A stretch of 64,000 nucleotides of DNA, taken from NCBI RefSeq assembly GCF_965219815.1, contig NZ_OZ244791.1:3500491-3564490 (forward strand). Direction: 5' to 3'. The notes under the pieces are model-generated. The model worked only from the letters and a program-made list of their open reading frames with translations, searched no databases and was not told where the DNA came from. Origin of the DNA: Candidatus Poriferisocius sp. (GTDB taxonomy: Bacteria > Actinomycetota > Acidimicrobiia > Acidimicrobiales > Bin134). The position numbers and the translations under genes were made by a program. Of the stretch, positions 6,989-34,575 are shown in pieces (the stretch's first letter is position 1; each line of letters begins with the position of its first letter).

Positions 6989-7004
6989 TGCCTAAGGTGA
7001 GGCT

Positions 7005-8145: not shown

Positions 8146-8193
8146 TCGCTCTTGCGTTTTGCTTGCGTTCGCTACTGCGATCGCTCTTGCGTT
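8146..8193. promoter_or_regulatory. three copies of the octamer CTTGCGTT (8151, 8162, 8186) upstream of the 139-aa gene; candidate operator
   Basis: Read directly. The 13-bp TCGCTCTTGCGTT is repeated at 8146 and 8181. The copies lie 40-90 bp upstream of the start at 8107. Confidence 0.35.
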
Positions 8194-8269
8194 CAACCGC
8201 AGCTTAGGCTCACTCCCCTGGAGCGCGCCAGAGGACTTTGGCGAATTCTGCGGAAACGCCTGGTTGTGC

Positions 8270-9937: not shown

Positions 9938-9942
9938 GCGTC

Positions 9943-12892: not shown

Positions 12893-12997
12893 AGAAAAGC
12901 CGCGACATCAATCCAGACCTCTTTAGTCAGGTATTGCCTCCGCGGAGTAGGGTGGGCAGACTTCTTTCATCAACTGCCGCGCAGCAAGGAGACAAAC

Positions 12998-13627: not shown

Positions 13628-13673
13628 TTTCCGCCGACAAAGGTCCGGCTCACATCAACGAAGGGCTATCTAC

Positions 13674-14504: not shown

Positions 14505-14559
14505 GCTAGGTCGCAGCCAAGTAGCCCGACCTCTAAGTTCATGATCCGGTAATCGGCCA

Positions 14560-17154
14560 ATGACTCTCCTGCGATACAGCCTCCGGAGCATCGCCGGCGT
14601 CAAGGTCCGGTTCGCGCTCACCACCCTTGCCGTAGTCATCGGGGTGGCCCTCACCACCGGGGTGCTGATCTCCACAGACGGCCTCCGCGCCTCCCTCAAC
14701 GACCTGTCGGGGCAGATTTACGAGAAGTACGACTTCACCGTTCGCGCCGCCTCCGACGTCGGCGACCGGAACGAGGGCGTGCCGCTGGTTCCTGTGTCGC
14801 TGAGCGAAGAGCTCATGTCGATGGACGGAGTAGAAGCCGTGGCGGGTTTGGCGCAGGAATTCAACGTCGTGGCCATCGACGGCGAAGGCAACGCCTTGGA
14901 CCCCGGCGTAGGCCGACAAATCGGATACGGCTGGCCCGAAGTTGAGTCGCTCAGCACGATCTATGTCTACGACGACGGCATCAGCCGCCAGCCCGTCGGG
15001 CCCGATGAATTCGCCATCGACCACTACACCGGCCGGGAGAACAACTTCGTCATCGGTCAGCGCTACAAGGTGGCCACCCCTGGGGGCACCGGCGAATACG
15101 AGCTGGTGGGGTACTTGTACTTTCTCGACCCTGAGACCCGGGTAGCGCTTCAGACCGTTTCGTGGGACATGCCCACCGCATTGGAACTCTTGCACGATGG
15201 CGGCGGCTACGACCACATCCACGGGAAGCTGTCACCGGGAGCGAGCTACGAAGAGGTGGCCGCGGCCATCAGTGCCCTCGTGGGCCCCGATATCGAGGTG
15301 GTCTCCCAGCAGGACAACATCGATGAGAGCAACGCGGAATTCGCCGGAAACATCGACCGTATCCAAAACCTCCTGTTGGCTTTCGCGGTGATCGTCTTGA
15401 TCATCTCGGCGTTTATCACTTACAACACATTCACCCTGGTCATGGGGCAACGCATCAGGGAGTTGGGCCTGCTGAGGGTACTGGGCGCCGAGCGGCGCCA
15501 AGTCGCCCAAGTCGTGGCGGTCGAAGCCTTGATCGTCGGGATCGTGGCCACCATCGCGGGATTCGGACTCGGCATATTGGTGGCTCTTGGTATTGCCGGA
15601 GCACTGAACAGCGCCGGCGCCCACCTTCCCGCTATCGACATCATCATCGGAGGGTGGACCGTTGCAGCCGCGGTGATCATCGGCATCGGTGTGACCATGG
15701 TGACCGCCATCTGGCCGGCCATGCGGGCCCGCCGGGTGACGCCCATGGTGGCGCTGGCCGACGAGGCCGAGATCGATCCCTTCAACAAGCGGCGCGCCTT
15801 GGTCATCGGATCGGCAGCCGGCGGGGTGGGGCTGATCCTGATGCTGATTGGTCTGCTGGCCGGTCTTCCTACCTCCCAGCTTTTGCTACCGCTCGGGTTG
15901 GGGGCGTTGTTGATGCTTCTGGGGGTCAACATCGCCACGCCGGGGATCGCCCGGTCGATGTCGCTGTTCTTGGGATGGCCGGCCGACCGGCTGTTCACCA
16001 TCAACGGGCGGTTGGCTCGGCTCAACGCGGCCCGCAACCCACGCCGCACCGCCACCACCGCTTCAGCGCTCATGATCGGCTTGGCCATGGTGTCGCTGGT
16101 CACCGTGCTCGGCACATCCCTCAAACAAACCTTGACTAGCCAACTAGAGGGTTCGGTGGAGGCCGACTGGCTCGTTTGCGTGAACGAGTGCAACACCGAT
16201 TTGAGCACGTTCAGCACCGCTGTGGGCGCGTTCAGCCAAGAGGCCACTCTGCAAATGTCGGAGATGCCCGAGGTGGAATCGGTGATGGCCTTCCGATTCC
16301 GCCCCGACGGAGCGCTCGCCCCCGATGGCGAACAGCGCCGCCTGACCGGCACTGACCTCGACTCGTTCTCACTCCATGTCGACCCGGGCGTGGTCTCCGG
16401 GAACTTGGAAGGCGCAGGCTCCGGCGATGTGCTCGTTCACAAGGATCTAGCCGACGATCTCGACATCGCCGTCGGAGACCAGCTGCTCCTCGAGTTCCCC
16501 GGCGAGCAGACGTCGACGTTTGATGTCGTCGCCCTTCACACCGAGGATTCCGTGGTCGGTCCGTTGGTGGTTGACTTCAGCGACTGGGACCAATTTATGG
16601 GCGGCACCCAGGACAATCTGGCCACGGTCATCATCGCTTCGGGGATTGACACGGACCAGGCCCGGTCCAGCCTGGAATCAGAGCTCGCCGACTATCCCCA
16701 GGTTGTGGTCAAGGACCAGGCCGAATACCGGGAGGGCAGGGCCACTGAGATCAACACGTTCCTGGTGATCATCAACGTGTTCTTGATCCTCGCTTTGCTC
16801 ATTGCGGTGGTGGGCATCTCCAACACCATGGCCCTTTCGATCTTCGAGCGAACCCGCGAGCTGGGGCTGGTGAGGGCCATCGGCATGGCCAAGAGGCAAA
16901 CCTGGGGGACGATCTTCTTGGAGAGCATCATCGTCGCCGTCTTCGGGGGAATCGTGGGCATTGCGACCGGCGTGGTGGCCGGCGCCATCGCCGCGGCCGC
17001 CCTTCCCGACAGCGTGATCTCCACCGTCAGCGTGCCGTGGCTCACGCTGGTGATCTACCTGGTGGTGTCGGCGGTGGCCGGAATGCTGGCCGCCTTCTTC
17101 CCGGCCCGCCGAGCCAACCGCCTCAACGTGCTGGAAGCCATCGCTCACCAGTAA
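14560..17154 (+). CDS. ABC transporter permease, internally duplicated FtsX/MacB type (864 aa)
   Basis: Two FtsX modules are present, each with the RTRELGLLR-type motif (IRELGLLRVLGA and RTRELGLVRAIGM), plus large extracytoplasmic domains. Confidence 0.9.
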   Translation: MTLLRYSLRSIAGVKVRFALTTLAVVIGVALTTGVLISTDGLRASLNDLSGQIYEKYDFTVRAASDVGDRNEGVPLVPVSLSEELMSMDGVEAVAGLAQEFNVVAIDGEGNALDPGVGRQIGYGWPEVESLSTIYVYDDGISRQPVGPDEFAIDHYTGRENNFVIGQRYKVATPGGTGEYELVGYLYFLDPETRVALQTVSWDMPTALELLHDGGGYDHIHGKLSPGASYEEVAAAISALVGPDIEVVSQQDNIDESNAEFAGNIDRIQNLLLAFAVIVLIISAFITYNTFTLVMGQRIRELGLLRVLGAERRQVAQVVAVEALIVGIVATIAGFGLGILVALGIAGALNSAGAHLPAIDIIIGGWTVAAAVIIGIGVTMVTAIWPAMRARRVTPMVALADEAEIDPFNKRRALVIGSAAGGVGLILMLIGLLAGLPTSQLLLPLGLGALLMLLGVNIATPGIARSMSLFLGWPADRLFTINGRLARLNAARNPRRTATTASALMIGLAMVSLVTVLGTSLKQTLTSQLEGSVEADWLVCVNECNTDLSTFSTAVGAFSQEATLQMSEMPEVESVMAFRFRPDGALAPDGEQRRLTGTDLDSFSLHVDPGVVSGNLEGAGSGDVLVHKDLADDLDIAVGDQLLLEFPGEQTSTFDVVALHTEDSVVGPLVVDFSDWDQFMGGTQDNLATVIIASGIDTDQARSSLESELADYPQVVVKDQAEYREGRATEINTFLVIINVFLILALLIAVVGISNTMALSIFERTRELGLVRAIGMAKRQTWGTIFLESIIVAVFGGIVGIATGVVAGAIAAAALPDSVISTVSVPWLTLVIYLVVSAVAGMLAAFFPARRANRLNVLEAIAHQ

Positions 17155-19921: not shown

Positions 19922-21469
19922 GTGATGCACGACACCGTCGAGTGGCAGGCGCTGAGCACTCACCGAGAGGCACTCCACGGCGTCCACCTGCGGGAATTGT
20001 TCGACGGCGATTCCAACCGGGGCGAGCGGCTTGTGGCCGAGACCGACGGCCTGCTGTTGGACTACTCCAAGAACCGCCTGACTGATGAGACGATGGAGTT
20101 GCTGGCCGCCCTGGCCGACAGGGCTGGGCTACGGCACCGAATTGAGGCCATGTTCAGTGGCGAGCCGGTGAACACCACCGAGTACCGCCCCGCCTGGCAC
20201 GTCGCCCTGCGCCAACCCAACCCGCCCCCTGAAGTCCGCGCTGAATTCGATCACATGGCGGAATTCGCGGCCGAGGCCCGCAGCGGCCGCTGGCAATCGG
20301 TGGTGAACATAGGCATCGGCGGGTCGGACCTGGGGCCGGCCATGGCCGCTGCGGCGCTGGGCGCCTTTGCCGACACTGATTTGGATGTGCGATTCCTGTC
20401 AAACATCGACGGTGCCCACTTCCGGGAGGTCACGCAGGGGCTGGACCCAGACCGGACCCTGTTCATCGTGGTGTCCAAGACGTTCACCACCACCGAAACT
20501 TTGACCAACGCCACCACTGCACGAGCCTGGGTCGCCGACGCGGTGGGCGCAGAGGCCGTCGGCAGCCACTTTGCCGCGGTCACCGCCAGCCCAAACAAGG
20601 CCCAAGACTTCGGTATCGACGCGAATGCCGTCTTCGCCATGTGGGACTGGGTGGGCGGCCGTTATTCACTGGCCTCAGCGGTGGGGCTCAGCCTTATGGC
20701 CGCCGTCGGGCCCGACGCCTTCGCCGACATGCTGGCCGGGATGCACCACATCGACGAGCACTTCCGCACCGCCCCGTGGGCCGAGAACCTCCCCGCCCTG
20801 CTGGGGCTCATCGGAATCTGGAACCGCAACTTCTGGGGTTGGCCCACTTATGCCGTGCTCCCCTATTCCCAGGAGCTGGCCCTGTTCCCCGCCTACATCC
20901 AACAGCTCGACATGGAGAGCAGCGGCAAGTCGGTACAAGCCGACGGCACCCCAGCGGCCACCGCCACCGGCCCGGTGGTGTGGGGCCAGCCGGGAACCAA
21001 CGGTCAACACGCCTTCCACCAACTGCTGCACCAGGGCACCGACATCGTCCCGGTGGACTTCATCGGCTTCTGCCGCTCGAACCACTCCCACATCGAGCAC
21101 CACGACCTGCTCATGTCCAACCTGTTCGCCCAGGCCGAGGCCCTGGCCTTCGGCGCCCCCGACGCTGGCAACCCCCACCAGCAGTTCTCAGGCAACCGGC
21201 CCAGCACCGTCCTTCTTGCCGACCAACTCACCCCCCGCACTCTGGGCCAGCTCGTGGCCCTCTACGAGCACAAGGTGTTCACTCAAGCCACCGTGTGGGG
21301 CATCAACCCCTTCGACCAATGGGGAGTCGAACTGGGCAAGACCCTGGCCACCAACATCGCCGCCGAACTCACCGGCGCAGCCCACCCCAACCCGGCCCGA
21401 GACTCCTCCACCCAATCCCTCATCAACCGCTACGTCAGCCGGGGGCCATCACGAGCCCAGAACAAGTGA
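19922..21469 (+). CDS. pgi: glucose-6-phosphate isomerase
   Basis: 515 aa with GIGGSDLGP, VVSKTFTTTET and GQHAFHQLLHQG motifs. Confidence 0.95.
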   Translation: MMHDTVEWQALSTHREALHGVHLRELFDGDSNRGERLVAETDGLLLDYSKNRLTDETMELLAALADRAGLRHRIEAMFSGEPVNTTEYRPAWHVALRQPNPPPEVRAEFDHMAEFAAEARSGRWQSVVNIGIGGSDLGPAMAAAALGAFADTDLDVRFLSNIDGAHFREVTQGLDPDRTLFIVVSKTFTTTETLTNATTARAWVADAVGAEAVGSHFAAVTASPNKAQDFGIDANAVFAMWDWVGGRYSLASAVGLSLMAAVGPDAFADMLAGMHHIDEHFRTAPWAENLPALLGLIGIWNRNFWGWPTYAVLPYSQELALFPAYIQQLDMESSGKSVQADGTPAATATGPVVWGQPGTNGQHAFHQLLHQGTDIVPVDFIGFCRSNHSHIEHHDLLMSNLFAQAEALAFGAPDAGNPHQQFSGNRPSTVLLADQLTPRTLGQLVALYEHKVFTQATVWGINPFDQWGVELGKTLATNIAAELTGAAHPNPARDSSTQSLINRYVSRGPSRAQNK

Positions 21470-21679
21470 ATAGCCCAAAAAGGTGTCTCGTGACGAAAGC
21501 TCGCCCTGCCTCACCCATTATGTGAAGAGCCAGAACCCATCAATACCTGGGCGATTTGCGGCAGAACCTGCAAAGGACAGCGAACTCTGTTGGGAAGCAG
21601 GCAACACTAGACAGGGCGGAACTGGTGTCATTGGTGGTGGGTAGAGTGCTGGGATGCTCGGGGCGATGTTGGGACCAGA

Positions 21680-24600
21680 ATGGCCGATCCTGACCAGCTG
21701 GTGAAGGGCGCCCGGGTGTGTTTGCCTGGGGACGATGATGTGATGACGCTGGTGCAGGTCACCCAGGGGGCGTTCTGGGAGATCGTCTATCGGGGTTCGG
21801 ACGGCAGCCTGGGCGAGGTCACACTACCTGAGGCTGAAGTACCAGAGATCAAGCTGATGTCATCGGCGGGACCGGTTCGCTTCAGCGGAGATCCCCGCCG
21901 GTTTCGGCTGGGAGTAGAGGCACTGCGGATCGAGAACATGTTTCGTCACGACATGGCGGCGTTGGCCGTGTCGAATATCTCGCCTCTGCCCCATCAGCTT
22001 GACGCGGTGTATGGGTCGCTCTTGCCGGAGCCGGTGCTGCGGTTCTTGTTGGCTGACGATCCAGGCGCTGGCAAGACCATCATGGCTGGGCTTTACATCA
22101 AGGAACTGATGCTGCGCCATGCCGCCGATCGGGTGTTGATCGTGACTCCGGCCAACCTGCGCCCGCAGTGGCAGCGTGAGCTGGCAGAGCGGTTCGACAT
22201 CCACTGCACTCAGTTCGACTCGGCAATGCTGCATGCCCATCCGACACAGAACCCTTGGGATCAGCACGATTTGGTGGTGGTGTCGCGGGATTTGCTCCGG
22301 CGAGAGGAGGTTATGGAGGGGTTTGCCAGCGCCGAGCGGGAGTGGGATTTGGCCATCATCGACGAGGCTCACGGGTTCACGCTCGATGTCGACAGCAAAG
22401 GTCTGATCAAAAAGCGCAGCGAGCGCTACAAGGCGGCTGAAGTGGTGGCCCGGAAGGCGCATCGACTGATCCTGTTGACGGCCACGCCGCATTCGGGCCG
22501 CAACGAGTCAATGTGGGGACTGCTTCGTTTGCTCGACCCGGACGCCTATGGCGACCGCTGCCCTTCAGGCGATGTGCCGCTGAATCCCCACCAGTACCGG
22601 AAGGTTGCCAAGGAAGAGATGGTGGACATGAGGGGCGAAGCTCTGTTCAAGCCCCGTCACCCGCACACGGTGGCCTACAGCCTCGCGGGCGCGGAACGGG
22701 ACTTGTATGAAGCGGTCACCAGCTTTGTGTCCACTGAACTGGCTCGCATCCGAGGCGAGAGCGGCCCACGGGTTGCCGGTTTTGCGCTCACTACCATGCA
22801 GCGGCGGCTGGCGTCGTCGCTCCGGGCCATCAAACGCACCTTGGAGCGCCGTGTCAATCGCTTGGAACAAGCGCTGGAAGACCCCGCGACCTATCTGCGG
22901 AACCGCCAGGAGTTCATCTCCGGCGTCTACGGCGAACAGCATCCCGACGAGTTGGGCGACCTCAACGAAGACGAGCGCTGGGAGATGGAAGAGAGGGCCC
23001 TCGAGGAGTGGTTACCGGGAACCATCACAGAGCTGGAGGAGGAGTTGACCGCATTGCGCCCCCTGCTCATCCAGGCCGAGGAGGCTGAGGCAGCGGGCAC
23101 GGAGGTGAAGCTGAACGAGTTGCTCGAAGTAGTGCGCCAAGAGGGCCTGAGCGACGATCCGTCGGTCAAGTTGCTGATCTTCACTGAGCACCGCGACACC
23201 CTCCACTATCTGGTGGAGAAGTTGTCGCCAGACTTCGATGTGGTTTCCATCCACGGTGGCATGAGGCTGGGAGACCGGATTGCCGCGGAAAGGGACTTTC
23301 GGGAACGGGCCCAGGTCATGGTGGCCACCGAGGCCGCCGGAGAGGGCATCAACCTCCAGTTCTGCCACCTGATGGTGAACTACGACATCCCGTGGAACCC
23401 GAACCGATTGGAACAGCGCATGGGCCGCATCCATCGCATCGGCCAGACCCGCGACGTGCATATCTATAACATGGTTGCCGCCAACACCCTTGAGGGTCAC
23501 GTGCTGGCCACCCTTCTCCAGAAGTTGGAGAACATGGGCCGAGTTCTCGGAGACAAGGTGTTCGACGTGATCGGGGAGACCTTTGCCGGATATCGCCTGG
23601 CAGAGTTGATCGAGCAGGTACTGGCCAAAGAAATCAGCCCAGACGACGCGGCCGAGAGCATCGGAGGAGACCAAGCCGATCCCGAGACGGAGGCGAGGTT
23701 CCGCGAGCTCACCAAAGAGGCGCTGGCGACCCGCTACCTGGATTGGCAATCACAAGCCGAAGCCGCTGCTCGAGCAGCGGAGCGACGACTCCCGCCCGGC
23801 TACATCGAGAAGTTCTTCACCGACGCAGTGGACTTCTTGGGCGGCAAAGTCGAAGATCGGCTCGACCCCGGCACCCTGCGAGTAACCCGCACACCCGACA
23901 AACTGGTAGCGGGGTCTCGGGCCGCTGGTGCAACCCGAGAGGTGTATCCGAGCTATGAGCGCATCACCTTCGACAAAGCAGTTCGCCTGCGGGCACACAC
24001 CAGCGGAGGCGAACACGCCGTCCCAGAGGCTGAACTATGCGGTCCCGGCCATCCCCTCTTCGATGCGGCGCTCAACACCGTGATCGTCCGCACCCGGGCC
24101 GATGTGGAGGCAGGCGCGGTGTTCGCCGCCCCCGACGTTGATGCGCCAACAGTCTTGTTCTTCCTCACCGGAGATTGTATGGACGGCACTGGCGAGATGG
24201 TCCACCGGGCATTTGCCACCGTTGCCGAACCGCAGGGCCAAGCTCTCAGGCCAAGCCGTGAACTGCTGTATGACATGTTCTTCCACGATGCTGAAGCACC
24301 CGAGGTGACTCTTTCTGATGTCGACAAGGTCGTGAACTGGGCGCGGCAACACGAGTTCGAGCCTCACTTCCAGCAAGCCAGCACCGAGCGGACTCGGGTC
24401 GTTCGAATCACCGAGGACTACCTCACCAAGGCATTCGCAGAGATAGCGGCCCGTCAACAAACCACTCTGCTTGACCTTGATGCAGAGGTCGAGCGCGGAG
24501 TGGCTGGCGCAGAGGGTCGCCGCCGACAAGCCGAGCTCGCAGCGGCAGAGACCACCGCGAAACGCGATGAGCGCCTAGACAAGACCAGGCGCTCTCGCAA

Positions 24601-25087
24601 TGTGAAGCGCGGCCCAGTGCGGATCATTGCTACCGCGTTGGTGGTTCCCAGCCTTACCGTGGGCGACGACCGTCCCATTGATACAACCGGCAAATTTTCT
24701 AGCCGTGAGATTGAGCAGATCGCCGTGAGGGAGGCGACGCGCTACGAAACCGATGTGCGCGGAGCAGACATTGTGAAGTCTTTTGAAGCGCAGAAGATCG
24801 GCTTCGACCTTCTTTCCTTGACGGGCATTGACCGGCGCTGCATCGAGGTGAAGGGCCGGGCCGGAGTGGGTGGAGTGGAACTGACCTGGTCGGAGTTTGC
24901 CAAGGCCCTTGAGTTGGGTGAGGACTATTGGCTGTACGTGGTGTTGGACTGCGCCACCCCCAACCCTCGCCTCTATAGGGTGCAGGATCCGGCCAAGGCC
25001 TTGGCCAGCGCTTGGTCGTCCAAACTCGATGTGCGTTATCGAGTTGCCCCCCAGCCGGTCATCGATGCCGCCGAGGCACAGCCATGA
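21680..25087 (+). CDS. SNF2-family helicase fused to a C-terminal DUF3883-like PD-(D/E)xK nuclease-fold domain (1135 aa)
   Basis: Helicase motif I LLADDPGAGKTIMAG, motif II IIDEAHGF, motif III LLTATPHSG and motif VI QRMGRIHRIGQTRDV. The C-terminus reads GFDLLSL...RCIEVKGRAG...DYWLYVV, a D...ExK pattern. Confidence 0.9.
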   Translation: MADPDQLVKGARVCLPGDDDVMTLVQVTQGAFWEIVYRGSDGSLGEVTLPEAEVPEIKLMSSAGPVRFSGDPRRFRLGVEALRIENMFRHDMAALAVSNISPLPHQLDAVYGSLLPEPVLRFLLADDPGAGKTIMAGLYIKELMLRHAADRVLIVTPANLRPQWQRELAERFDIHCTQFDSAMLHAHPTQNPWDQHDLVVVSRDLLRREEVMEGFASAEREWDLAIIDEAHGFTLDVDSKGLIKKRSERYKAAEVVARKAHRLILLTATPHSGRNESMWGLLRLLDPDAYGDRCPSGDVPLNPHQYRKVAKEEMVDMRGEALFKPRHPHTVAYSLAGAERDLYEAVTSFVSTELARIRGESGPRVAGFALTTMQRRLASSLRAIKRTLERRVNRLEQALEDPATYLRNRQEFISGVYGEQHPDELGDLNEDERWEMEERALEEWLPGTITELEEELTALRPLLIQAEEAEAAGTEVKLNELLEVVRQEGLSDDPSVKLLIFTEHRDTLHYLVEKLSPDFDVVSIHGGMRLGDRIAAERDFRERAQVMVATEAAGEGINLQFCHLMVNYDIPWNPNRLEQRMGRIHRIGQTRDVHIYNMVAANTLEGHVLATLLQKLENMGRVLGDKVFDVIGETFAGYRLAELIEQVLAKEISPDDAAESIGGDQADPETEARFRELTKEALATRYLDWQSQAEAAARAAERRLPPGYIEKFFTDAVDFLGGKVEDRLDPGTLRVTRTPDKLVAGSRAAGATREVYPSYERITFDKAVRLRAHTSGGEHAVPEAELCGPGHPLFDAALNTVIVRTRADVEAGAVFAAPDVDAPTVLFFLTGDCMDGTGEMVHRAFATVAEPQGQALRPSRELLYDMFFHDAEAPEVTLSDVDKVVNWARQHEFEPHFQQASTERTRVVRITEDYLTKAFAEIAARQQTTLLDLDAEVERGVAGAEGRRRQAELAAAETTAKRDERLDKTRRSRNVKRGPVRIIATALVVPSLTVGDDRPIDTTGKFSSREIEQIAVREATRYETDVRGADIVKSFEAQKIGFDLLSLTGIDRRCIEVKGRAGVGGVELTWSEFAKALELGEDYWLYVVLDCATPNPRLYRVQDPAKALASAWSSKLDVRYRVAPQPVIDAAEAQP

Positions 25088-27732
25088 CCCGTCGGAAACT
25101 GATCGAGGCGGCGCTCCCGCTGGCTGCGATCAACCACGCATCGGTCACCGACAAGCGCACTCATGACGGACATATCTCCACTCTGCACACCTGGTGGGCT
25201 CGGCGTCCGCTGCCCATGGCCCGGGCAATGGCGGCAGCCGCACTGATCGAAGAGGGAGCGGACGCCAGCGAAGTGCTGTCCAAGATCGGCGACGCGATGC
25301 CGCCCAAGAGACTGCTCTACAACGATGCGGTGGGTTGGCTCAAGAAGCGAATCCGGCAAGACCATTTGCAGCCGCCGAAGGTGCTCGACTGTTTTGCGGG
25401 CGGGGGCGCCATTCCATTGGAGGCCATGCGACTGGGCTGTGACACCACAGCCATGGACCTGAACCCGGTTGCCCATCTGGTGGAGCTGGCCTCTCTTGAC
25501 TATCCCCAGCGCTTCGGGGATACAGACCTGGACGGACGCAACACCCTGGTGGTGGACGTTGAGCGATGGGCGGGGTGGGTGGCCTACAAAACCGAAAAAG
25601 CTGTGGCCCATCTCTATCCCGCCGCCGAAAGCCGCCCGCCGGTGCCCTACTACTTCTGGGTGCGGACCATGCCCAGTCCCGATCCGGGCCGGGAGGTCGA
25701 GATTCCGATTCTCAGCTCTCGGCTCTTGGCTGAGGGGCGTCGCCACGCGTGGGTGACTACCTCGGTGACGCCGGACGGCGTGGACATTGAAGTCCATCAG
25801 GGCGAGCTTCCCGACGACCCGACCCTCAAAGACGGATTCGAGTCGGCAGGAAGCGTTACCTGCCCGATTTCGGCGGTCACCGCTCCCCAGCGCGACGTGA
25901 AGGCCCACGGGACAGCCCACGGTTTCGGTTATCGGCTGTACGCCGTCTGCGACGTTGACGGGCGAGAGCGCACCTACCGCGCACCGACTCCGGTTGAGTC
26001 GGAGGCTCCTGTGTTGGCGGCCGACGAACTTCCTGCCCTGGTCGACGACGAGTTCGACGACGGAACGGCTCGCCTGCCCGATGAACAGGTAGACGAGATC
26101 GGCTACAACAATTTGCAGTTCTTGCCCTATGGCTATCGCACGTGGCGATCGCTGTTCACCGACCGGCAACTGGTGCTCTATGCGACGCTGAGCGCCAACA
26201 TCCGCGCCGCCCATGAGTCGATGCTGGCCGAGGGCATGGCTGCGGACCGGGCCCGGGCGGTGGCCACCTACCTTGCTTTCGCGCTCGACAAGGTGGCGGA
26301 TCGGAACTCGGCGTTCTCCAGTTGGCAGACCGGCGGCGAGAAGATACGAGCGACGTTCACTGGCCAAACGGTGCAGATGCGCTGGGACTTCTGCGAGAAC
26401 TATCCGTTCCGCACCGGGTCTGGTTCTTGGAACGACGCGGTGACGGCAATCGGCAAGGTGATCGAGCACTGCTCACAGACCGGGGAAACCCCGGCGCGGG
26501 TGCTGCGGGGCGACGCCCGGGCCATGCCATTCGCTGATGGTGAGTTTGATGCCGTCCTCATCGATCCGCCCTACTACTTCTCGGTCATGTACTCCGATCT
26601 GTCGGACTTCTTCTATGTGTGGCTCAAGCGGTCGGTCGGCCACCTGTACCCCGAGCACTTCGCCACCCCGTGGACCCCCAAGGCTCAAGAGGTTGTGCAG
26701 AACCGCTGTCGCCCCAGCATGGGGGGCTACATCTCCGAGGAGGAGTTCGACCGGCGGCTGGCCGACGCGTTGTCGGAAGTGGCCCGGGTGGTCAAGCCCG
26801 ACGGGGTGGTCGCTCTGGTGTTCGCCCATACTGCGGTCAAGGCGTGGGAGAAGTTGCTGCGCGCGCTGCGAATCGCGGGCTTGAGCGTTACCACCTCGTG
26901 GCCTATCCGCTCGGAGATGGCTGGCCGGCCAGTCGCCCATGTCAAGGCGACCTTGGCTAGCTCGGTGGTGCTGGTGTGCCGGCCCAACAATGAGGCCGGC
27001 GATGCGTTCTACGACGAAGTAGAGGCCGAGCTGAATCGGGTGGTCGGTCAGCGGTTGAATGAGTTCGAGGACTTGGGGTTGCGGGGCGCGGATTACTTCG
27101 TGTCGGCCATCGGCCCAGCCTTCGAGGTATTCGCCAGCCACCGCTCGGTCACCCGACTGGATGGGACTGAGGTGTCCATTGGCGATCTCATGGAACTGGC
27201 CCGCAAGGCTGTTGCCCGCCACGCGATGGGACGTCTGCTCGCGGCCGATACGCTCGGCGTGCTTGACGACCGATCCCTGCTCTACGTCACCTGGCGATGG
27301 GCATACCTGACGGTGCCCGTCCCCGCCGATGAGGCCATCAAGCTCTCCCGGGCATTCTCGGTAAGCCTTGACGATGTGACCATGCCCGGCGGGATGGTCA
27401 GCCGCAAGGGCAAGAACTTCTCACTGCTCGGCCCCCACGAGCGCCCCGACGTTCGGCTGCGGCCCGACAGCCCGTTGATCGACGTTCTGCATGTGGCCTC
27501 GCAGCTTTGGGATGCGGGCCGGGCCAACGAAGTGATTGAAGTGCTTGCTGCCTCGGGGTGTGGGACCATGCCCGGGTTCTGGGATGTAGCCCGTGCTTTG
27601 GCAGAAGTGCTTCCTGAAGGGCAACGGGAGCGCACCATGTACCAAGCGCTCGCCACGTCACAGCAGCGTCTGGCCGAGGCGGCGGCAAAGCAGCCGGCAA
27701 CAAGCTATGAAGAACTCCAGCTTTCCTTCTGA
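25084..27732 (+). CDS. DUF1156-type DNA methyltransferase (N6-adenine/N4-cytosine class, DPPY motif)
   Basis: The N-terminus MTRRKLIEAALPLAAINHAS...LHTWWARRPL is the DUF1156 signature. SAM motif I is VLDCFAGGGAIPLEA and motif IV is VLIDPPYY. The ATG at 25084 overlaps the helicase stop as ATGA. Confidence 0.88.
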   Translation: MTRRKLIEAALPLAAINHASVTDKRTHDGHISTLHTWWARRPLPMARAMAAAALIEEGADASEVLSKIGDAMPPKRLLYNDAVGWLKKRIRQDHLQPPKVLDCFAGGGAIPLEAMRLGCDTTAMDLNPVAHLVELASLDYPQRFGDTDLDGRNTLVVDVERWAGWVAYKTEKAVAHLYPAAESRPPVPYYFWVRTMPSPDPGREVEIPILSSRLLAEGRRHAWVTTSVTPDGVDIEVHQGELPDDPTLKDGFESAGSVTCPISAVTAPQRDVKAHGTAHGFGYRLYAVCDVDGRERTYRAPTPVESEAPVLAADELPALVDDEFDDGTARLPDEQVDEIGYNNLQFLPYGYRTWRSLFTDRQLVLYATLSANIRAAHESMLAEGMAADRARAVATYLAFALDKVADRNSAFSSWQTGGEKIRATFTGQTVQMRWDFCENYPFRTGSGSWNDAVTAIGKVIEHCSQTGETPARVLRGDARAMPFADGEFDAVLIDPPYYFSVMYSDLSDFFYVWLKRSVGHLYPEHFATPWTPKAQEVVQNRCRPSMGGYISEEEFDRRLADALSEVARVVKPDGVVALVFAHTAVKAWEKLLRALRIAGLSVTTSWPIRSEMAGRPVAHVKATLASSVVLVCRPNNEAGDAFYDEVEAELNRVVGQRLNEFEDLGLRGADYFVSAIGPAFEVFASHRSVTRLDGTEVSIGDLMELARKAVARHAMGRLLAADTLGVLDDRSLLYVTWRWAYLTVPVPADEAIKLSRAFSVSLDDVTMPGGMVSRKGKNFSLLGPHERPDVRLRPDSPLIDVLHVASQLWDAGRANEVIEVLAASGCGTMPGFWDVARALAEVLPEGQRERTMYQALATSQQRLAEAAAKQPATSYEELQLSF

Positions 27733-27744
27733 TAGGCAGACCCC

Positions 27745-30552
27745 ATGACCGATTTGGCACCGTGGCTTGATATCGCCTGTCCCCACGCAGACATCCGCGA
27801 CGGATCGTTCGACGAATCTCTGTTTGCCGCCGACCTCGGCTTGGTGGCGAACGGGATGGGTCCAGATGACTACGTGGATGCCGAGTTGTTCGCGGCCAAG
27901 ACGTACCTGACCGAGAATCTGCGATCAGTGCTGGTGGAGGTGGGCAATCGACTGAGTGGCGACGCGGGATCGGCGGCAGTGTTCCGGATGCAGACCGAGT
28001 TCGGCGGGGGCAAGACCCACACTCTGCTGGCCGCGTACCACCTGTTCCGCGCTCCCGAGCAGGTTGCCGGCACGCAACTAGGAATAGATCTTGCCGCAGC
28101 CTTGAGAACCGGAAGTTTGCCCAATGCCCGAGTTGCGGTGTTGGACGGCTCCGCGCTGACCGTCGATCCCGAGACCATGCCCGATGGCTCCGTGGTGCGA
28201 TCTTTCCTCGGGCATTTGGCCTGGAGGTTGGGCGGTGCCGCGGCGTATGAGACGGTCCGGGCCAAAGATGAGGGCCTGCGCGGCACTTCCACAGTGGAGA
28301 TGGTCAAGCTTCTCAGCGAAGCGGCACCGTGCCTGATCTTGCTGGACGAGACCTTGGAGTACCTCAATAAGGCATTGGCGGTTGGCTCGGTTGACGGCAA
28401 CCTGGCCGCCACCACGCTCACGGTGATCAAAGAACTCTGTACCGCCGCCTCAAACGTGCCCGGCGTCGCGGTGGTCGCTACCCTTACCTCCTCGCGCTTA
28501 GAGGACTACTCGACGGTTGCTGGCCAGGAGATGGCGGAGCGGCTGTCCAAGGTCGTGGGCCGCATCGAGAACATTGTCACCCCAGTGGAGGGCGACGACA
28601 TTTTCCCCATCCTGCATACTCGCCTGTTCGAGACCATCGGCAGTTTGGAGCAGCGGCAGGCGGTGGCCGACGCCTATGGCGCCTGCTACGACCAGATGGG
28701 CGATGTGCTCCCCCAGTCCTACCGCGACCCCTCCTACCGAGACCGCATCCGAGGTGCCTATCCGTTCCACCCGGAGTTGATCGACCTGCTTACCAATCGC
28801 TGGGGGTCGCTGTCGGGATTCCAGCGCACCCGAGGGGCGTTGCGAACATTGGCCCACACGGTGAAGGCACTAGCCCAGAGCAATCATCAGGGGCTGCTCA
28901 TCGGCCTTGGCGATGTGCCTTTGGCCGATGACGGTGTGCGGGCTGAGGTCATTCGATTTGCTGGAGAGTCGTACAAGTCGGCCCTCAACGCCGACATCAT
29001 CCGGCCCGATTCCAAGGCTGCGGTGGAGGACGAGCGCCGGGGAGGAGAGATCAAGAGAAATCGGGTTGCGGTGGGACTGGCCACGACGGCGTTCCTCAAC
29101 AGCTTCGGCTCCGACCGGGTGCTTGGCGCTTCACCACCACAGATGCTCGTCGGCGTCGCCCAGCCGCTGCCCGGCCTGTCCCGAGGGCTGCTCGACGACG
29201 TGCGCGACGCTCTGGCCGGATCGCTGTGGTACATGCGCTATGAGGGCGGCCGCTATCGGTTCACGACCGAGCCCAATCTGAACAAGGTGATCGTGGAACG
29301 GGAGGGCGCCGTCGGAGACGGGGAGATCACCGCGCTGTTGAGAGAAACGGTCGGCCACATCGCCGGGCCGGTGGCCCCGTTCCGGGTAGTCACCCATGTC
29401 GTCGAGCCCAACGACGTGATTGACGAACCCCGCCTCACCCTCGGCGTGCTCGCCCCACACCGGGCAGTCGGCAACCAACCAGGCAGCACCGCTGTCGAGG
29501 CAGATGAAGTGGCGGGCGCGGTGCTCAACACCGGGCGAGGGTCGTCTCGGTCGAACAAGAACGCGCTTGTGTTGGTTGCGGCCGACGCCGGTGGTGTGAC
29601 CAAGGCTCGCCAGGTTGCTCGCACGGTGGTGGCCATGCGGGACATCACCAGGGACAGCATCCGGGTTAAGCGGTTCAACCAGGACCAGCGTGACCAGCTG
29701 GAAGCCCGGCTGAGTGCGGTAGAAGAGCGCCTGCCCCAGGAGGTGGTGATGGCCTACCGGCACCTCATCCTGCTCGGGCCGGACGGCAATGGCGGCGTCC
29801 GGGTTGAGACTGTTGACCTCGGCCCGGCTCGGGTGGGCGACACCATTTGCCAGCGGGTGGTTGACCACCTCAAGGCCACTGACCGGCTTATCGACACCAC
29901 GCTCGCACCAGCGGCCTTGCTCACCGACCGTTTCGGCGTGATCGGCTCGGACGAGCCAGTAGTCGAACTCGACCGCCTGTTGGACTACTTCTACCGGCTG
30001 CCCCGCTTACCGAAGATCGCTAGTTCCGATGTGCTGCGCCGTTGTCTGGCGCAGGGGGTAAGTGCCAGCCTGTTCGGCTTGGCATCAGGTGCTTCCTGGG
30101 ACGCCGCTGATGCCGTGCTGCGCTTTGGGGAGCCGCTGGACCCGACCGAGATCCAGTTCCAACCCGGCACCTGGTTAGCACGCGCCGCTGACATCAAGCC
30201 TCTGATTGAGGCTCGCCGTCCGAGCGAGGAGTCTGAAGAAGCCAAACCAACAACTGGTTCAGAGCCTGAGGGCGAGACCACTCCTACGGAGCACCCAGAG
30301 AACCAGCAGTCTGGTGTCAAGGAAGGCCAAGATCCGACCAGAGTCACCCTCACCACACGCCAGATCCCTGCCGACAAAATCCGCGATGTGGTCAAGGTCG
30401 CCATTATGCCCCTCGCTGCCACCGGAGCAGACGTGACCATCAACGTCGAAGTCACTGCCACCCACCCTGATGGCATCCCCCACACCACACTGGACCTGAC
30501 CGTCGCCGAAGGATTGCGCCAACTCGGCCTCGATCACGATCTCACCAAGTAG
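27745..30552 (+). CDS. DUF499-type P-loop ATPase (935 aa)
   Basis: Walker A-like FGGGKTHTLLAAYHL and Walker B LILLDETLEYL. The gene starts 13 nt after the methylase stop. Confidence 0.85.
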   Translation: MTDLAPWLDIACPHADIRDGSFDESLFAADLGLVANGMGPDDYVDAELFAAKTYLTENLRSVLVEVGNRLSGDAGSAAVFRMQTEFGGGKTHTLLAAYHLFRAPEQVAGTQLGIDLAAALRTGSLPNARVAVLDGSALTVDPETMPDGSVVRSFLGHLAWRLGGAAAYETVRAKDEGLRGTSTVEMVKLLSEAAPCLILLDETLEYLNKALAVGSVDGNLAATTLTVIKELCTAASNVPGVAVVATLTSSRLEDYSTVAGQEMAERLSKVVGRIENIVTPVEGDDIFPILHTRLFETIGSLEQRQAVADAYGACYDQMGDVLPQSYRDPSYRDRIRGAYPFHPELIDLLTNRWGSLSGFQRTRGALRTLAHTVKALAQSNHQGLLIGLGDVPLADDGVRAEVIRFAGESYKSALNADIIRPDSKAAVEDERRGGEIKRNRVAVGLATTAFLNSFGSDRVLGASPPQMLVGVAQPLPGLSRGLLDDVRDALAGSLWYMRYEGGRYRFTTEPNLNKVIVEREGAVGDGEITALLRETVGHIAGPVAPFRVVTHVVEPNDVIDEPRLTLGVLAPHRAVGNQPGSTAVEADEVAGAVLNTGRGSSRSNKNALVLVAADAGGVTKARQVARTVVAMRDITRDSIRVKRFNQDQRDQLEARLSAVEERLPQEVVMAYRHLILLGPDGNGGVRVETVDLGPARVGDTICQRVVDHLKATDRLIDTTLAPAALLTDRFGVIGSDEPVVELDRLLDYFYRLPRLPKIASSDVLRRCLAQGVSASLFGLASGASWDAADAVLRFGEPLDPTEIQFQPGTWLARAADIKPLIEARRPSEESEEAKPTTGSEPEGETTPTEHPENQQSGVKEGQDPTRVTLTTRQIPADKIRDVVKVAIMPLAATGADVTINVEVTATHPDGIPHTTLDLTVAEGLRQLGLDHDLTK

Positions 30553-30611
30553 GCTAGATCCGGGTATTCGATTATCGGTGTAAGCAACACAAACTGGAAT
30601 AGGAGAAAGAG

Positions 30612-30746
30612 ATGGCAAAAGGGGAAACAGTACAAGAGGGCATTAGGGTGAACGCCCAAAGACAGGGTCAAAAAAAGGTGCAGAATGCTCCAGCACCTCC
30701 GGTTGCCAAGAGCAGGCCCAAGCCTCCTGTTTCAAAGAAGAAATAA
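30612..30746 (+). CDS. small Lys/Pro-rich basic peptide (44 aa), hypothetical
   Basis: Sequence MAKGETVQEGIRVNAQRQGQKKVQNAPAPPVAKSRPKPPVSKKK. A strong AGGAG Shine-Dalgarno sequence (30601-30605) lies 6 nt upstream of the ATG. The stop is 4 nt before the next ATG. It lies in the low-GC segment and is below the ORF-track length cutoff. Confidence 0.4.
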   Translation: MAKGETVQEGIRVNAQRQGQKKVQNAPAPPVAKSRPKPPVSKKK

Positions 30747-30750
30747 CTGA

Positions 30751-31392
30751 ATGCCAGCAACTGTACTTAGCCTGGCAATTGCCGGACTAGTAGTCTTGCC
30801 AGGACTAAGCTACCTGGCGGGCAGAGAATCTCAGTATCCTACTCAAAAGATCAGAGGCTTTAGAGAGACTGCGACAATAGTATTTGCAGGGATTGTCTCA
30901 GTTGTAATTGGCTTGATTGCATTCGCAATCGTCCGTGCATCAATCCCAACGCATACACCCGATATCGGGGCATTGCTTCGCATGCCGGAATCATACGTTC
31001 GAGAACACCTACCATATGTCTCTGGGTGGGCATTAGCTATATTAGCGTTTTCATCTCTTGGCTCATTCCTCTTTGGAAAATTCTCCCCTAGATTACCAAG
31101 CAATATTTCAGTCGAGTCAGCCTGGTGGTCTGCATTTGAATCCATACCAGACTCAGACAAAGTACAGGTATATATTGACTGTTACCTGACAGACGATTCC
31201 ATACTATCAGGATATCTCTATAGCTACAGCGTGGATATAGAAGAGACAATGGACAGAGAGATCTGCTTAGTCGCTCCCGTAACATACAAGGCATCAAAAC
31301 CATCTTTAGCAGAAGAATTGGAGGACGCAGGTATTGTGACAGTCAGTGCATCTCGAATAAAGTTTGTTTCAGTCACTTACTTCAATGTGTAG
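30751..31392 (+). CDS. hypothetical membrane protein (3 predicted TM helices plus a soluble C-terminal domain of about 100 aa), low-GC gene
   Basis: Hydrophobic segments ATVLSLAIAGLVVLPGLSYLAG, TATIVFAGIVSVVIGLIAFAIV and VSGWALAILAFSSLGSFLFGKF. GC in sampled 60-nt lines is about 42-53%, versus about 65% in flanking genes. Confidence 0.65.
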   Translation: MPATVLSLAIAGLVVLPGLSYLAGRESQYPTQKIRGFRETATIVFAGIVSVVIGLIAFAIVRASIPTHTPDIGALLRMPESYVREHLPYVSGWALAILAFSSLGSFLFGKFSPRLPSNISVESAWWSAFESIPDSDKVQVYIDCYLTDDSILSGYLYSYSVDIEETMDREICLVAPVTYKASKPSLAEELEDAGIVTVSASRIKFVSVTYFNV

Positions 31393-31410
31393 ATAAAGGA
31401 TCAAACACTG

Positions 31411-32676
31411 ATGCAGACTATGTATGAGGAACACCCCTTATTGGTGAGCCCCTGGTACCATCAGACCGAATTGCTCCGATTGATTGCCGGTGGCGAGAAC
31501 TCGCGCGTGGAGTTCATGCGGGATGACGTGCAGCCGGGGAAGTTCGCCACGGTGCTCGCTGGACTGCTGAACCTCGACGGCGGGCATGTGCTGCTCGGCG
31601 TCGAGGACGACGGCGGCGTCTCCGGGCTATCGCGTGCGGTTGCAAGAGCCGAAGAGTGGATCATGCAGGTTGCTCGCGATCACCTGGAGCCCTCCATCAT
31701 CCCGAACTGGGAGGTTATCGAGTCTGACGGCGGCATCATGGTCGGCATCGTAACCGTGCCGGCCAACGCACCCGACAAGCCGTACAAGTCCAAACAGGGG
31801 TCGCACTGGGTTACCAAGGTCCGTGTCGGCACCACCACACGCGATGCGACTCGTGAGGAGGAACAACGGCTGTACCAGCAGTCGGGTGGACTCCGCTACG
31901 GCCTCAAGCCGGTACCAGGAGCCAGTGCTGCCGATCTCGACACACGACGCCTTCAGGATTACTTCGCCCGCATCCGCGGCGATGCGGAGATGCCCAGCCC
32001 CAATTCAGAGTCGTGGCGCAGGCTGCTCTGCAACCTTGAGCTTGCCACCGAAACCGGTGGTGAAACGTACGCCACCGTCGACGGGATGCTCCTGTTCGGC
32101 CTGAACACAGGGTGATTCTTGCCGCAATGCGGAATTCGAGCGGTGTGCTTCCCGGGCCAAGAGTCCGACTATGCCACGAGATCCGACGAGAGCATCAAGG
32201 GCCCGCTAGTGGCTTTGCGCTCAGTCGACGGTGAGTTAGTCGAAACCGGAGTCGTGGAAAGGGCTCTCGACTTCGTCCGTCGCAACACGGGTGCCTCCGC
32301 AGCGCTGGAGGACGGTCGCCGTGTCGAGCGCCCCGATTTCCCTGAGCCAGCCATTCGCGAGGTTGTGGTCAATGCACTTGTACACCGCGACTACAGCATC
32401 ACTGGGACCGATGTGCTGTTATCGGTCTTCGACGATCGAATCGAAGTGCAGAGTCCTGGGAGCCTGCCGAACACCATCAGCGTCGAGGGCATGCGTGAAG
32501 GAGCCCGCTATGCGCGTAACCAGGTGATGATGAGCATCATGCGTGACTACGGCTACGTCGAGGGGCTGGGCATGGGCATCCGCCGACAGGTCATCCCCGC
32601 CATGGCACAGCACAATGGCACCGAACCGGACTTCTCCGAAGAAGAATCCCGCTTCACCGTCTCCCTGAGGAAGTAG
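31411..32676 (+). pseudogene. AlbA_2 (Schlafen-like divergent AAA) plus HATPase_c_4 putative DNA-binding protein, interrupted by one in-frame TGA (32113-32115)
   Basis: ORFs 31411..32115 and 32119..32676 are in the same frame. The N-terminal part has GENSRVEFMRDD and the C-terminal part has VVNALVHRDYS...IEVQSPGSLP. The protein reads ...LLFGLNTG*FLPQCGIRAV... across the stop. Confidence 0.75.
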
Positions 32677-32725
32677 AAGTCGCCATAGGAACCGCTAGCC
32701 GTCTGTGGCAGACTAAGGGCGACAA

Positions 32726-34575
<1,850 letters not shown>

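Follow-up and report, generated by a model that had tools for sequence, protein, structure and literature searches.

The closest described relative of the locus reported here is Hma, a system named by Payne et al. [quoted passage not shown] An Hma locus comprises three genes on one strand at one locus, with three or fewer genes separating neighbours, and type 1 is defined by an active C-terminal PD-(D/E)xK nuclease on the helicase (PMC12839542). HmaA was tested in 2024, when the Halomonas meridiana protein alone was found to protect E. coli against T4 via its nickase domain. The protection extended to T4 only among four phages tested, and the protein is non-toxic without HmaB and gives an abortive-infection-like phenotype. 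Its PD-(D/E)xK domain is a Mn2+-dependent nickase on supercoiled plasmid, and the quadruple mutation D1084/E1104/K1106/E1121 abolishes both defence and nicking (PMC11232893).

The sister system MANTIS (also Gao_RL, or BR type 2) is composed of the DUF499 ATPase MtsA, MtsB, the methyltransferase MtsC and the PLD-helicase MtsD. A preprint of September 2026 analysed it experimentally: the DUF499 ATPase loads MtsC, 6-bp asymmetric sites are hemimethylated and restriction requires both ATPases (bioRxiv 10.64898/2026.09.23.753747). MtsC is the type-2 counterpart of the DUF1156 methyltransferase, and the comparative model for type 1 in the literature is the same as the MANTIS-type scheme (PMC12839542). 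MtsB (DUF3780) is needed to stimulate methylation, for which a Tudor domain on HmaA has been proposed as the substitute in Hma, and the MANTIS nuclease is a dimeric PLD enzyme. The initial annotation of the locus held that the mechanism of such triads had not been worked out. That statement stands for Hma itself and fails for the wider family, in which HmaA has been tested and the ATPase role and site type of MANTIS are known.

Results

A complete and compact Hma locus

The window (the whole 64,000-nt stretch of DNA that was analysed) contains a complete compact Hma system, that is, a DUF499-centred BR type 1 locus (Table 1). The PADLOC models for HmaA (PDLC00659, 1.8e-195, residues 19-1089 of 1135), HmaB (1.9e-111) and HmaC (1.5e-139, residues 4-930) match near full length, and the name Hma, given in the initial annotation, is therefore right. 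Chance does not account for profile E-values of 1e-111 to 1e-195 together with a gene order that recurs across genomes. All three genes lie on one strand with no intervening gene. The hmaA stop and the hmaB start overlap by 4 nt in an ATGA, and hmaB and hmaC are 12 nt apart (taggcagacccc), which is the tight co-directional packing originally reported and agrees in strand and spacing with the definition of an Hma locus. The overlap and the short gap suggest a single operon with translational coupling. Promoter and terminator scans of 21300-32900 returned counts no better than those of shuffled sequence.

Table 1. Features of the Hma locus and of the genes 3´ of it (window coordinates).
Feature	Position	Strand	Description
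hmaA	21680..25087	+	1135 aa; Snf2-family helicase with C-terminal PD-(D/E)xK nuclease; predicted restriction effector
hmaA Snf2 motor core	21899..23749	+	~aa 74-690; GAGKT 22064-22078, DEAH 22361-22372, QRMGRIHRIGQ 23414-23446
hmaA NOV_C / PD-(D/E)xK nuclease domain	24713..24976	+	aa 1012-1099; Pfam NOV_C 1e-10
hmaA predicted catalytic codons	D1043 24806-24808, E1056 24845-24847, K1058 24851-24853, E1072 24893-24895	+	
hmaA stop / hmaB start overlap	25084-87		ATGA
hmaB	25084..27732	+	882 aa from ATG; DUF1156 amino-methyltransferase; predicted self-marking and site-recognition subunit
hmaB motif I	25393-25407		FAGGG, aa 104
hmaB TRD insert, eroded zinc ribbon	25675..25872	+	former Cys columns S198, R203, C260, S263 (alignments)
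hmaB motif IV	26563-26574		DPPY, aa 494
hmaB-hmaC spacer	27733-27744		12 nt
hmaC	27745..30552	+	935 aa; DUF499 AAA+ ATPase, BrxC-like
hmaC Walker A	28003-28020		GGGKTH, aa 87
hmaC Walker B	28339-28350		LLDE, aa 199
hmaC C-terminal domain	30331-30549		small domain after the linker
44-aa basic Pro-rich ORF	30613-30747	+	low-GC
DUF6338 membrane protein	30751-31392	+	Pfam DUF6338 1.7e-30; low-GC
Schlafen/AlbA_2 + HATPase_c_4 gene	31411..32676	+	auxiliary-type, broken (Pfam); in-frame TGA 32113-32115

Of the related loci, 18 cover the three genes with readable frames, and every one of them retains the compact A-B-C order. Conserved synteny had been put forward as a check on the assignment, and the same order was observed in Acidimicrobiia, Streptosporangiales, Streptomyces, Nocardia and one alphaproteobacterial MAG. 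At 82-90% identity the triad occupies other chromosomal contexts in five relatives (L004-L007 and L018); it is mobile as one unit. Third-position GC is 0.74-0.77 in the triad and 0.83-0.90 in the flanking housekeeping genes. In this Candidatus Poriferisocius (Acidimicrobiia) genome, the locus belongs to an island gained by horizontal transfer, which lies between pgi and thiC. Scans for tRNA genes and Rfam families found no tRNA and matched only the TPP riboswitch of thiC, so that no obvious integration site is present. In the closest relative, L001, the Hma locus is decayed, and the Schlafen-type gene of the window carries a nonsense codon, from which it follows that the island is not under uniformly strong selection. 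The deletion in L001 was also considered as a sign of methylase-nuclease addiction. It does not discriminate, because the MANTIS methylase is itself needed for restriction.

The HmaA helicase-nuclease

HmaA comprises the Pfam domains SNF2-rel_dom, Helicase_C, ResIII and NOV_C. NOV_C is the Pfam name of PF13020, listed as DUF3883 in the initial annotation, and both families proposed there, SNF2 and DUF3883, were thus recovered. The intact SNF2 motifs and the D...ExK pattern quoted there were located without exception: GAGKT at residue 129, DEAH at 228, TATP at 267 and QRMGRIHRIGQ at 579 in the motor, and GFD (1041-1043) and CIEVKG (1054-1059) in the nuclease domain. The regions outside these domains (residues 1-73 and 691-1011) are conserved across orthologues, and Pfam searches with residues 1-80 and 691-1011 gave no usable match even at E = 10, so that neither the Tudor domain nor an inactive REase domain was confirmed there.

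Among solved structures the motor is nearest to RapA (5.7e-43), and the same span is matched by the DrmD and BrxHII profiles. The RapA relationship is what a role outside defence would build on, with a RapA-like RNA-polymerase recycling helicase and a regulatory methylase forming an epigenetic or transcription-associated module for host physiology. This role is very improbable. The triad is patchily distributed in varying chromosomal contexts and has an atypical composition, the cargo beside it varies and is of defence type, and in a close relative the locus is decayed; moreover, its proteins match defence-specific profiles and a homologue is directly anti-phage (PMC11232893).

The C-terminal nuclease that defines type 1 is present, with a NOV_C domain and four conserved catalytic positions. 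The Asp, the Lys and the second Glu are identical in 13 of 13 orthologues and the first Glu in 12 of 13. These residues, D1043/E1056/K1058/E1072, match D1084/E1104/K1106/E1121 of Halomonas HmaA by motif order. The Halomonas data also bear on whether HmaA needs its partners. As a self-sufficient sensor-effector, its Snf2 motor would sense infecting or replicating phage DNA and nick it, causing an abortive-infection-like stall, and HmaB and HmaC would form a separate or modulatory methylation module. Full T4 protection by Halomonas HmaA alone in E. coli, MOI-dependent and non-toxic without HmaB or HmaC (PMC11232893), is consistent with this arrangement, and other single-protein helicase-nuclease defences are known (Nhi, Hna). 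However, the three genes overlap or nearly so and are co-inherited at every locus examined, 79% of type-1 systems retain the helicase-nuclease fusion beside the methyltransferase and the ATPase (PMC12839542), and MANTIS needs all its components for restriction. The T4 result was, in addition, obtained by heterologous expression with a phage whose DNA is heavily modified. A self-sufficient HmaA is thus unlikely, albeit the strongest of the alternatives.

The HmaB methyltransferase and its eroded zinc ribbon

The DUF1156 family assigned to HmaB was recovered by the Pfam profile (3.4e-14), and the N-terminal HTWWARRP motif starts at residue 35. Motif I (FAGGG) and motif IV (DPPY), both seen in the initial annotation, are invariant in 50 homologues. 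The spacing of ~370 aa given there did not hold, since FAGGG at 104 and DPPY at 494 place the motifs 390 aa apart. The order of motif I, TRD insert and motif IV is that of the alpha class. The AF2 model of HmaB has a pLDDT of 83 and a pTM of 0.81. Foldseek comparison of this model with an April 2026 copy of the PDB returned only generic Rossmann methyltransferases (E ~6e-3) and no whole-protein analogue, and a PDB sequence search with HmaB returned no match.

The methyltransferase TRD insert usually bears a 4-Cys zinc finger at its apex, a feature that PADLOC does not use. The paired-Cys zinc ribbon had not been seen in the first reading of HmaB, and the alignments bear this out, with S198, R203, C260 and S263 standing at the four Cys columns. 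Homologues at 56% identity or less to the window HmaB carry Cx4C...CPxC. Among the 117 closest full-length HmaB homologue clusters, the zinc columns read CCCC in 74 and S-x-C-S/T in 43, and all of the latter are at least 62% identical to the window HmaB. Read from these alignments, the predicted zinc finger is eroded throughout one HmaB subclade, which is the one departure from usual Hma. The region is still modelled at a pLDDT of ~90, and the 43-cluster subclade has three of the four zinc ligands replaced, with the fold probably kept. Since the ligands are lost at the TRD apex, DNA recognition by this subclade may differ.

The HmaC ATPase

HmaC was annotated as a DUF499 ATPase with GGGKTH as Walker A and LLDE as Walker B, and Pfam and the motif positions support each point; the Walker A GGGKT and the Walker B DE are invariant in the alignment. 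A C-terminal RRM-like domain has been described for the type-1 DUF499 ATPase. In HmaC, a disordered Pro/Glu linker (residues 827-862) leads to a small C-terminal domain (residues 863-935), which is modelled as two helices (pLDDT 81-86, AF2) with no strand by DSSP and no Pfam match.

The top Foldseek matches of the HmaC model are to the N-terminal region of BrxC (9zll, E 9e-5, probability 1.0, ~600 aligned columns). PDB sequence searches with HmaC and with an 11-sequence HmaC profile returned no match; the link to BrxC is thus seen by fold comparison only. Together with the likeness of the HmaA core to BrxHII and RapA, the resemblance to BrxC allows a BREX-like exclusion to be envisaged, in which HmaB-HmaC marks self, HmaA stops phage replication or transcription by RapA-like remodelling, and the nuclease is minor or a backup. 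Classical BREX indeed stops replication with no obvious cleavage. Exclusion without DNA degradation is nevertheless improbable here, less likely than a self-sufficient HmaA. The PD-(D/E)xK catalytic residues are conserved in orthologues, and the sole tested homologue needs them both to defend and to nick (PMC11232893). Nuclease and PglZ are interchangeable among BR types, which points to the nuclease as a primary effector.

Genes 3´ of hmaC

The two low-GC genes that follow hmaC lie outside the Hma core. The pair formed by the 44-aa ORF and the DUF6338 gene, which has no PADLOC or NCBIfam match, is also found 3´ of hmaC in L001, L002, L004, L006 and L007; in other relatives, the slot holds different cargo. 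DUF6338 was considered as a fourth Hma gene, as it follows hmaC in six loci. It was rejected, since a 46%-identical homologue, preceded by the same small ORF, lies without Hma in L025-L028.

The third gene combines Schlafen/AlbA_2 and HATPase_c_4 domains. Schlafen RNase + minimal histidine kinase + wHTH genes are reported to be frequent auxiliary effectors next to BREX and BR loci (PMC12839542). The codon read as TGA in the window is CGA in the relatives L001-L003.

A further reading is doubtful, slightly less so than BREX-like exclusion. It holds that the zinc-free TRD confers a DNA recognition or target-site class different from that of canonical Hma, BR and BREX-3 methylases and, separately, that the 44-aa ORF and DUF6338 constitute a small module, not described before, with a defence or accessory role and carried in a variable slot beside defence systems.

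Discussion

The locus probably works in a MANTIS-like manner, with HmaC-loaded HmaB marking self and HmaA attacking unmodified DNA. HmaC, the BrxC-like AAA+ ATPase, would bind ATP and load the monomeric alpha-class HmaB at DNA sites that are short and asymmetric. At such sites in the host chromosome, HmaB would methylate an exocyclic amino group on one strand only, most likely at N6 of adenine, leaving a self mark. On incoming DNA with unmodified sites, site-bound HmaB-HmaC would recruit or license HmaA, whose Snf2 motor would translocate on dsDNA at the expense of ATP while nicking or cutting is done by the PD-(D/E)xK domain. The initial annotation had assigned modification to the methyltransferase, translocation and cleavage to the SNF2-nuclease, and a sensor or regulator role to the ATPase, in agreement with the literature proposal (PMC12839542). 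MANTIS yields sharp predictions for type 1, namely an ATPase-loaded methylase, hemimethylation and a dependence on site orientation. Two differences speak against the analogy: Hma is without MtsB, and its effector is a PD-(D/E)xK nickase rather than a dimeric PLD nuclease. The behaviour of Halomonas HmaA, which acts alone, is non-toxic and gives an abortive-infection-like phenotype, also does not agree with a simple model of a nuclease held off by methylation.

Comparison with known systems

With Type III and Type ISP restriction enzymes, the window system shares the logic of a nuclease that works with an ATP-driven motor and, as predicted, the hemimethylation of asymmetric sites. With DISARM it shares the Snf2 core, which matches DrmD profiles at 1e-110. 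In contrast to all of these, it consists of three separate polypeptides that include an AAA+ loader. DISARM was rejected as an identity: the resemblance to DrmD is confined to the Snf2 core, the NCBIfam DrmD model scores 344 where its cut-off is 610, and DrmA, DrmB, DrmC and other Drm genes were not found in the island.

Type 3 BREX is closer. The HmaC fold resembles BrxC, HmaA matches the BrxHII profile at 4e-86, HmaB matches PglXI weakly, and the methyltransferases of both systems have a TRD insert after strand 2 (PMC12839542). In the window, however, the helicase is fused to a nuclease and the methyltransferase has a DUF1156 N-terminus. BR type 3 and BREX type 3, which call for PglZ, an inactive STAND (BrxB-like) gene and a nuclease-free helicase, were rejected on the nuclease-bearing helicase and on the neighbours, which are pgi, DUF6338, the Schlafen-type gene and thiC; Pfam found no PglZ or BrxA/BrxB-like gene in the island.

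MANTIS has a homologous DUF499 AAA+ ATPase, a homologous alpha-class methyltransferase (380 aa from motif I to DPPY, compared with 390 aa in HmaB) and an SF2 motor-nuclease effector. The window locus differs in having no MtsB/DUF3780 gene, and its operon leaves no room for another gene. Its nuclease is a C-terminal PD-(D/E)xK domain, whereas that of MANTIS is an N-terminal HKD/PLD domain; neither Pfam nor PADLOC found a PLD domain in HmaA, and the PLD_Helicase profile matches the motor only. The window proteins score 159, 171 and 168 bits against NCBIfam type-2 cut-offs of 1000, 1200 and 1100. The missing DUF3780 and PLD nuclease, with scores far under the cut-offs, led to the rejection of MANTIS as an identity.

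The agreement with Hma covers three families near full length, gene order, strand, a helicase with a NOV_C nuclease, the DUF1156 N-terminus and DUF499. The locus is real, correctly named and of an already catalogued kind, and is an ordinary instance of it. Catalogues already list Hma or BR type 1 for ~1,500 to 2,400 genomes or taxa, and a PADLOC run would pick up this locus, so that it carries little weight as a discovery. Beside the eroded zinc finger, it differs from other Hma loci in having no embedded genes (~63% have some), in an HmaC without the N-terminal HEPN fusion carried by 1370 of 2446 type-1 taxa (PMC12839542), and in its host, an uncultivated sponge-associated member of Acidimicrobiia. 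With all its catalytic motifs intact and neither embedded genes nor a HEPN fusion, it is a clean minimal example of the system and adds to the record of defence content in sponge-symbiont Acidimicrobiia. The subclade with a zinc-less TRD offers a natural comparison for the contribution of the zinc finger to target recognition.

Operon structure and classification

The three co-directional genes described in the initial annotation are indeed tightly packed. The stop codon of hmaA (helicase) and the start codon of hmaB (methylase) share an ATGA overlap, and a gap of 12 bases precedes hmaC (ATPase). All of the motifs quoted for these genes are found in the translated ORFs, and the catalytic motifs are intact. 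HmaA contains GAGKT (residue 129), DEAH (228), TATP (267), QRMGRIHRIGQ (579) and GFD...CIEVKG (1041-1059); HmaB contains HTWWARRP (35), FAGGG (104) and DPPY (494); and HmaC contains GGGKTH (87) and LLDE (199).

The proposed families were recovered by Pfam profile search, with SNF2-rel_dom, Helicase_C, ResIII and NOV_C (the Pfam name of PF13020, or DUF3883) in HmaA, DUF1156 plus weak methyltransferase matches in HmaB, and DUF499 in HmaC. The suggested name, Hma, agrees with the PADLOC profiles HmaA (1.8e-195), HmaB (1.9e-111) and HmaC (1.5e-139), which match almost end-to-end. The NCBIfam "anti-phage DUF1156 / DUF499 / phospholipase-D helicase" models gave partial matches far under their cut-offs.

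The name Hma comes from Payne et al. 2021, who reported 1,638 operons of the three genes across 26 phyla (PMC8565338). Among BREX-related (BR) systems, type 1 has a C-terminal PD-(D/E)xK domain on the helicase, and its ATPase often bears a HEPN fusion; type 2 combines a PLD-helicase with DUF3780; and PglZ and an inactive STAND protein are additional components of type 3 (PMC12839542). The window locus is Hma type 1 (BR type 1), because the helicase bears a C-terminal nuclease, no DUF3780 gene lies within the hma operon, no PglZ or inactive STAND gene was found in the island, HmaC is HEPN-less and no genes are embedded between hmaA, hmaB and hmaC. HmaC begins at its conserved N-terminal motif with Walker A at residue 87, and therefore carries no HEPN fusion. 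Other defence genes are embedded between the hma genes in about 63% of 1,485 Hma loci (bioRxiv 10.1101/2024.01.29.577857).

Coordinates of features in the window and in related loci (L handles)
Feature	Position	Strand	Remark
pgi	19922-21469		left neighbour of island
hmaA	21680-25087	+	1135 aa
hmaB	25084-27732	+	882 aa counted from ATG
hmaC	27745-30552	+	935 aa
Basic, Pro-rich ORF (MAKGETVQEGIRVNAQRQGQKKVQNAPAPPVAKSRPKPPVSKKK)	30613-30747	+	44 aa; own AGGAG ribosome-binding site
DUF6338 membrane-protein gene	30751-31392	+	starts 3 nt past end of 44-aa ORF
Schlafen/AlbA_2 + HATPase_c_4 gene	31411-32676	+	in-frame TGA at 32113-32115
TPP riboswitch	32720-32830	+	Rfam RF00059, 58 bits; upstream of thiC; right edge of island
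TPP riboswitch + thiC	from 32720		right neighbour of island
1737-aa ORF	41989-47202	-	within lower-GC stretch (0.59-0.61)
L003, low-GC cargo downstream of hmaC	12960-15677		close relative
L018, low-GC cargo downstream of hmaC	12814-13527		close relative
L004, low-GC cargo downstream of hmaC	13686-14444		close relative
L005, low-GC cargo downstream of hmaC	12968-14713		close relative
L001 (JAJDUJ010000015.1), region carrying a deletion	8149-10001		about 3.5 kb lost
L008 (CAVZRJ010000004.1), hmaA match	4123-7291		six pieces, different frames
L019 (Streptomyces sp. LBL), partial hmaB	upstream of 8733		intact HmaC

Conservation and mobility

With each species represented by one genome, a scan identified 24 loci encoding HmaC relatives. 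The initial annotation had made its reading depend on synteny in other genomes, and the same tight hmaA-hmaB-hmaC order is kept in 18 of the 18 loci in which all three genes are covered and their frames can be read, most of them with an identical A/B overlap. HmaC is 85-91% identical to that of the window in sponge/marine Acidimicrobiia MAGs; other hosts are Nonomuraea, Streptosporangium, Actinoallomurus, Actinomadura, Streptomyces, Nocardia and one Hyphomicrobiaceae MAG. Within the window, pgi and the TPP riboswitch/thiC border the island, and loci L004-L007 and L018 carry the triad at 82-90% identity in unrelated contexts. Third-position GC is 0.74-0.77 in the triad and 0.83-0.90 in the flanking housekeeping genes. 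These contexts and this composition, together with the conserved order across hosts, fit a mobile defence module. At the right edge, the longest thiC ORF starts at 32815 and overlaps the riboswitch, so thiC probably begins 3' of this position.

Several related copies are, or may be, disrupted. L001, the closest relative with the pgi-thiC context, bears a deletion at a CCTTCT microhomology that joins hmaA codon 613 to the final bases of hmaB; the nuclease (3') half of hmaA and the entire methylase gene are lost, and hmaC is intact. The fragmented hmaA of L008 points to a pseudogene or, alternatively, to frameshift errors in long reads. In L019, HmaB was matched only over its C-terminal 400 residues, and HmaA was not found within 10 kb upstream. 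The L008 and L019 copies may represent further decayed or interrupted Hma.

Variable cargo beside hmaC

The slot 3' of hmaC acts as a hotspot for variable cargo that lies next to Hma, not inside it. In the window this slot contains a low-GC cassette (0.55) made up of the small ORF and the DUF6338 gene, a pair whose protein sequences are conserved in L001, L002, L004, L006 and L007. A 46%-identical version occurs away from Hma in L025, where the small ORF has no called gene. Because the pair is also found without Hma, it was rejected as a core component; no papers discuss the function of this cassette. Near BREX and BR loci, Schlafen/AlbA_2 + HATPase_c_4 genes have been reported to be auxiliary effectors (PMC12839542). 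L001-L003 have CGA (Arg) in place of the in-frame TGA, so the stop either arose by one C-to-T substitution or is a sequencing error. The cargo in L003, L018, L004 and L005 includes a 905-aa PHP + ABC-type ATPase protein, a DUF7689 protein and proteins with weak nucleoside 2-deoxyribosyltransferase-like matches.

Anatomy of the three proteins

The nearest solved relative of the HmaA motor is RapA, to which BrxHII has likewise been related (PMC12839542). Of the nuclease residues, D1043, K1058 and E1072 are shared by all 13 orthologues and E1056 by 12 of them. By motif order, not by an alignment of the two proteins, these four correspond to the PD-(D/E)xK residues D1084/E1104/K1106/E1121 in NOV_C of Halomonas meridiana HmaA. 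Liu et al. 2024 showed that this protein by itself protects E. coli from T4, that protection requires those residues and the Snf2 motifs, and that the NOV_C domain in isolation introduces nicks into supercoiled plasmid in the presence of Mn2+ (PMC11232893).

No PDB entry matched HmaC in sequence searches. The only significant structural matches of its AlphaFold2 model (48 homologues, pLDDT 74) are to BrxC of the Acinetobacter BREX complex (9zll, E 9e-5 to 5e-4, about 600 columns), followed at non-significant E-values by ORC, DnaA and clamp-loader AAA+ proteins. The similar, BrxC-like fold predicted by the model directly supports a BREX relationship of HmaC.

In the HmaB model, which is confident (pLDDT 83, pTM 0.81), a beta-rich insert separates motif I from motif IV and accounts for their spacing of 390 residues, given as about 370 in the initial annotation. 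No solved whole-protein analogue was found in the PDB copy searched. The DPPY motif and the PADLOC description (DNA-adenine methylase) point to an amino-methyltransferase, as opposed to the "m5C" methylase of the 2021 text (PMC8565338).

A 4-Cys zinc finger at the apex of the target-recognition (TRD) insert is the conserved, usual state (PMC12839542), and HmaB homologues at ≤56% identity have Cx4C...CPxC. In contrast, the four columns read Ser, variable, Cys and Ser in window HmaB and its relatives, which bears out the missing paired-Cys Zn-ribbon of the initial annotation. The 117 best full-length homologue clusters divide into 74 with CCCC and 43 with S-x-C-S/T, the latter being exactly those at least 62% identical to window HmaB. 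From this distribution, the loss of zinc ligands is old and is tolerated throughout a diversified subclade, and is not decay of the window copy. The corresponding region is modelled with high confidence.

A proposed model for Hma and comparison with MANTIS

BR type 2, formerly called Gao_RL, was dissected under the name MANTIS in a September 2026 preprint. In this system the methylase MtsC is loaded onto DNA by the DUF499 ATPase MtsA and leaves asymmetric sites of 6 bp hemimethylated, and restriction requires all four proteins and both ATPase activities, with the strongest effect from inverted unmodified sites (bioRxiv 10.64898/2026.09.23.753747). The best-supported account of Hma combines these experiments with the type-1 comparative model (PMC12839542). 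We infer that ATP-bound HmaC would load HmaB onto asymmetric sites, that HmaB would methylate a single strand of host DNA, leaving it hemimethylated, and that unmodified invader sites bound by HmaB-HmaC would license HmaA. Licensed HmaA would then translocate and nick or cut the invading DNA. How type 1 Hma senses and marks DNA is a question for the whole family, not specific to this locus.

HmaB and MtsC share the alpha-class motif order, with spacings of 390 and 380 residues. Four points argue against carrying the MANTIS model over unchanged: Hma has no MtsB equivalent, its nuclease is of another kind, Halomonas HmaA acts alone against T4, is not toxic and gives an abortive-infection-like phenotype (PMC11232893), and the window clade is without the zinc finger. 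The window locus thus adds one more member to a system that is already known and widely distributed, and it shows one minor variation at the level of its clade, the loss from HmaB of the TRD-insert zinc finger of the usual BR methylases.
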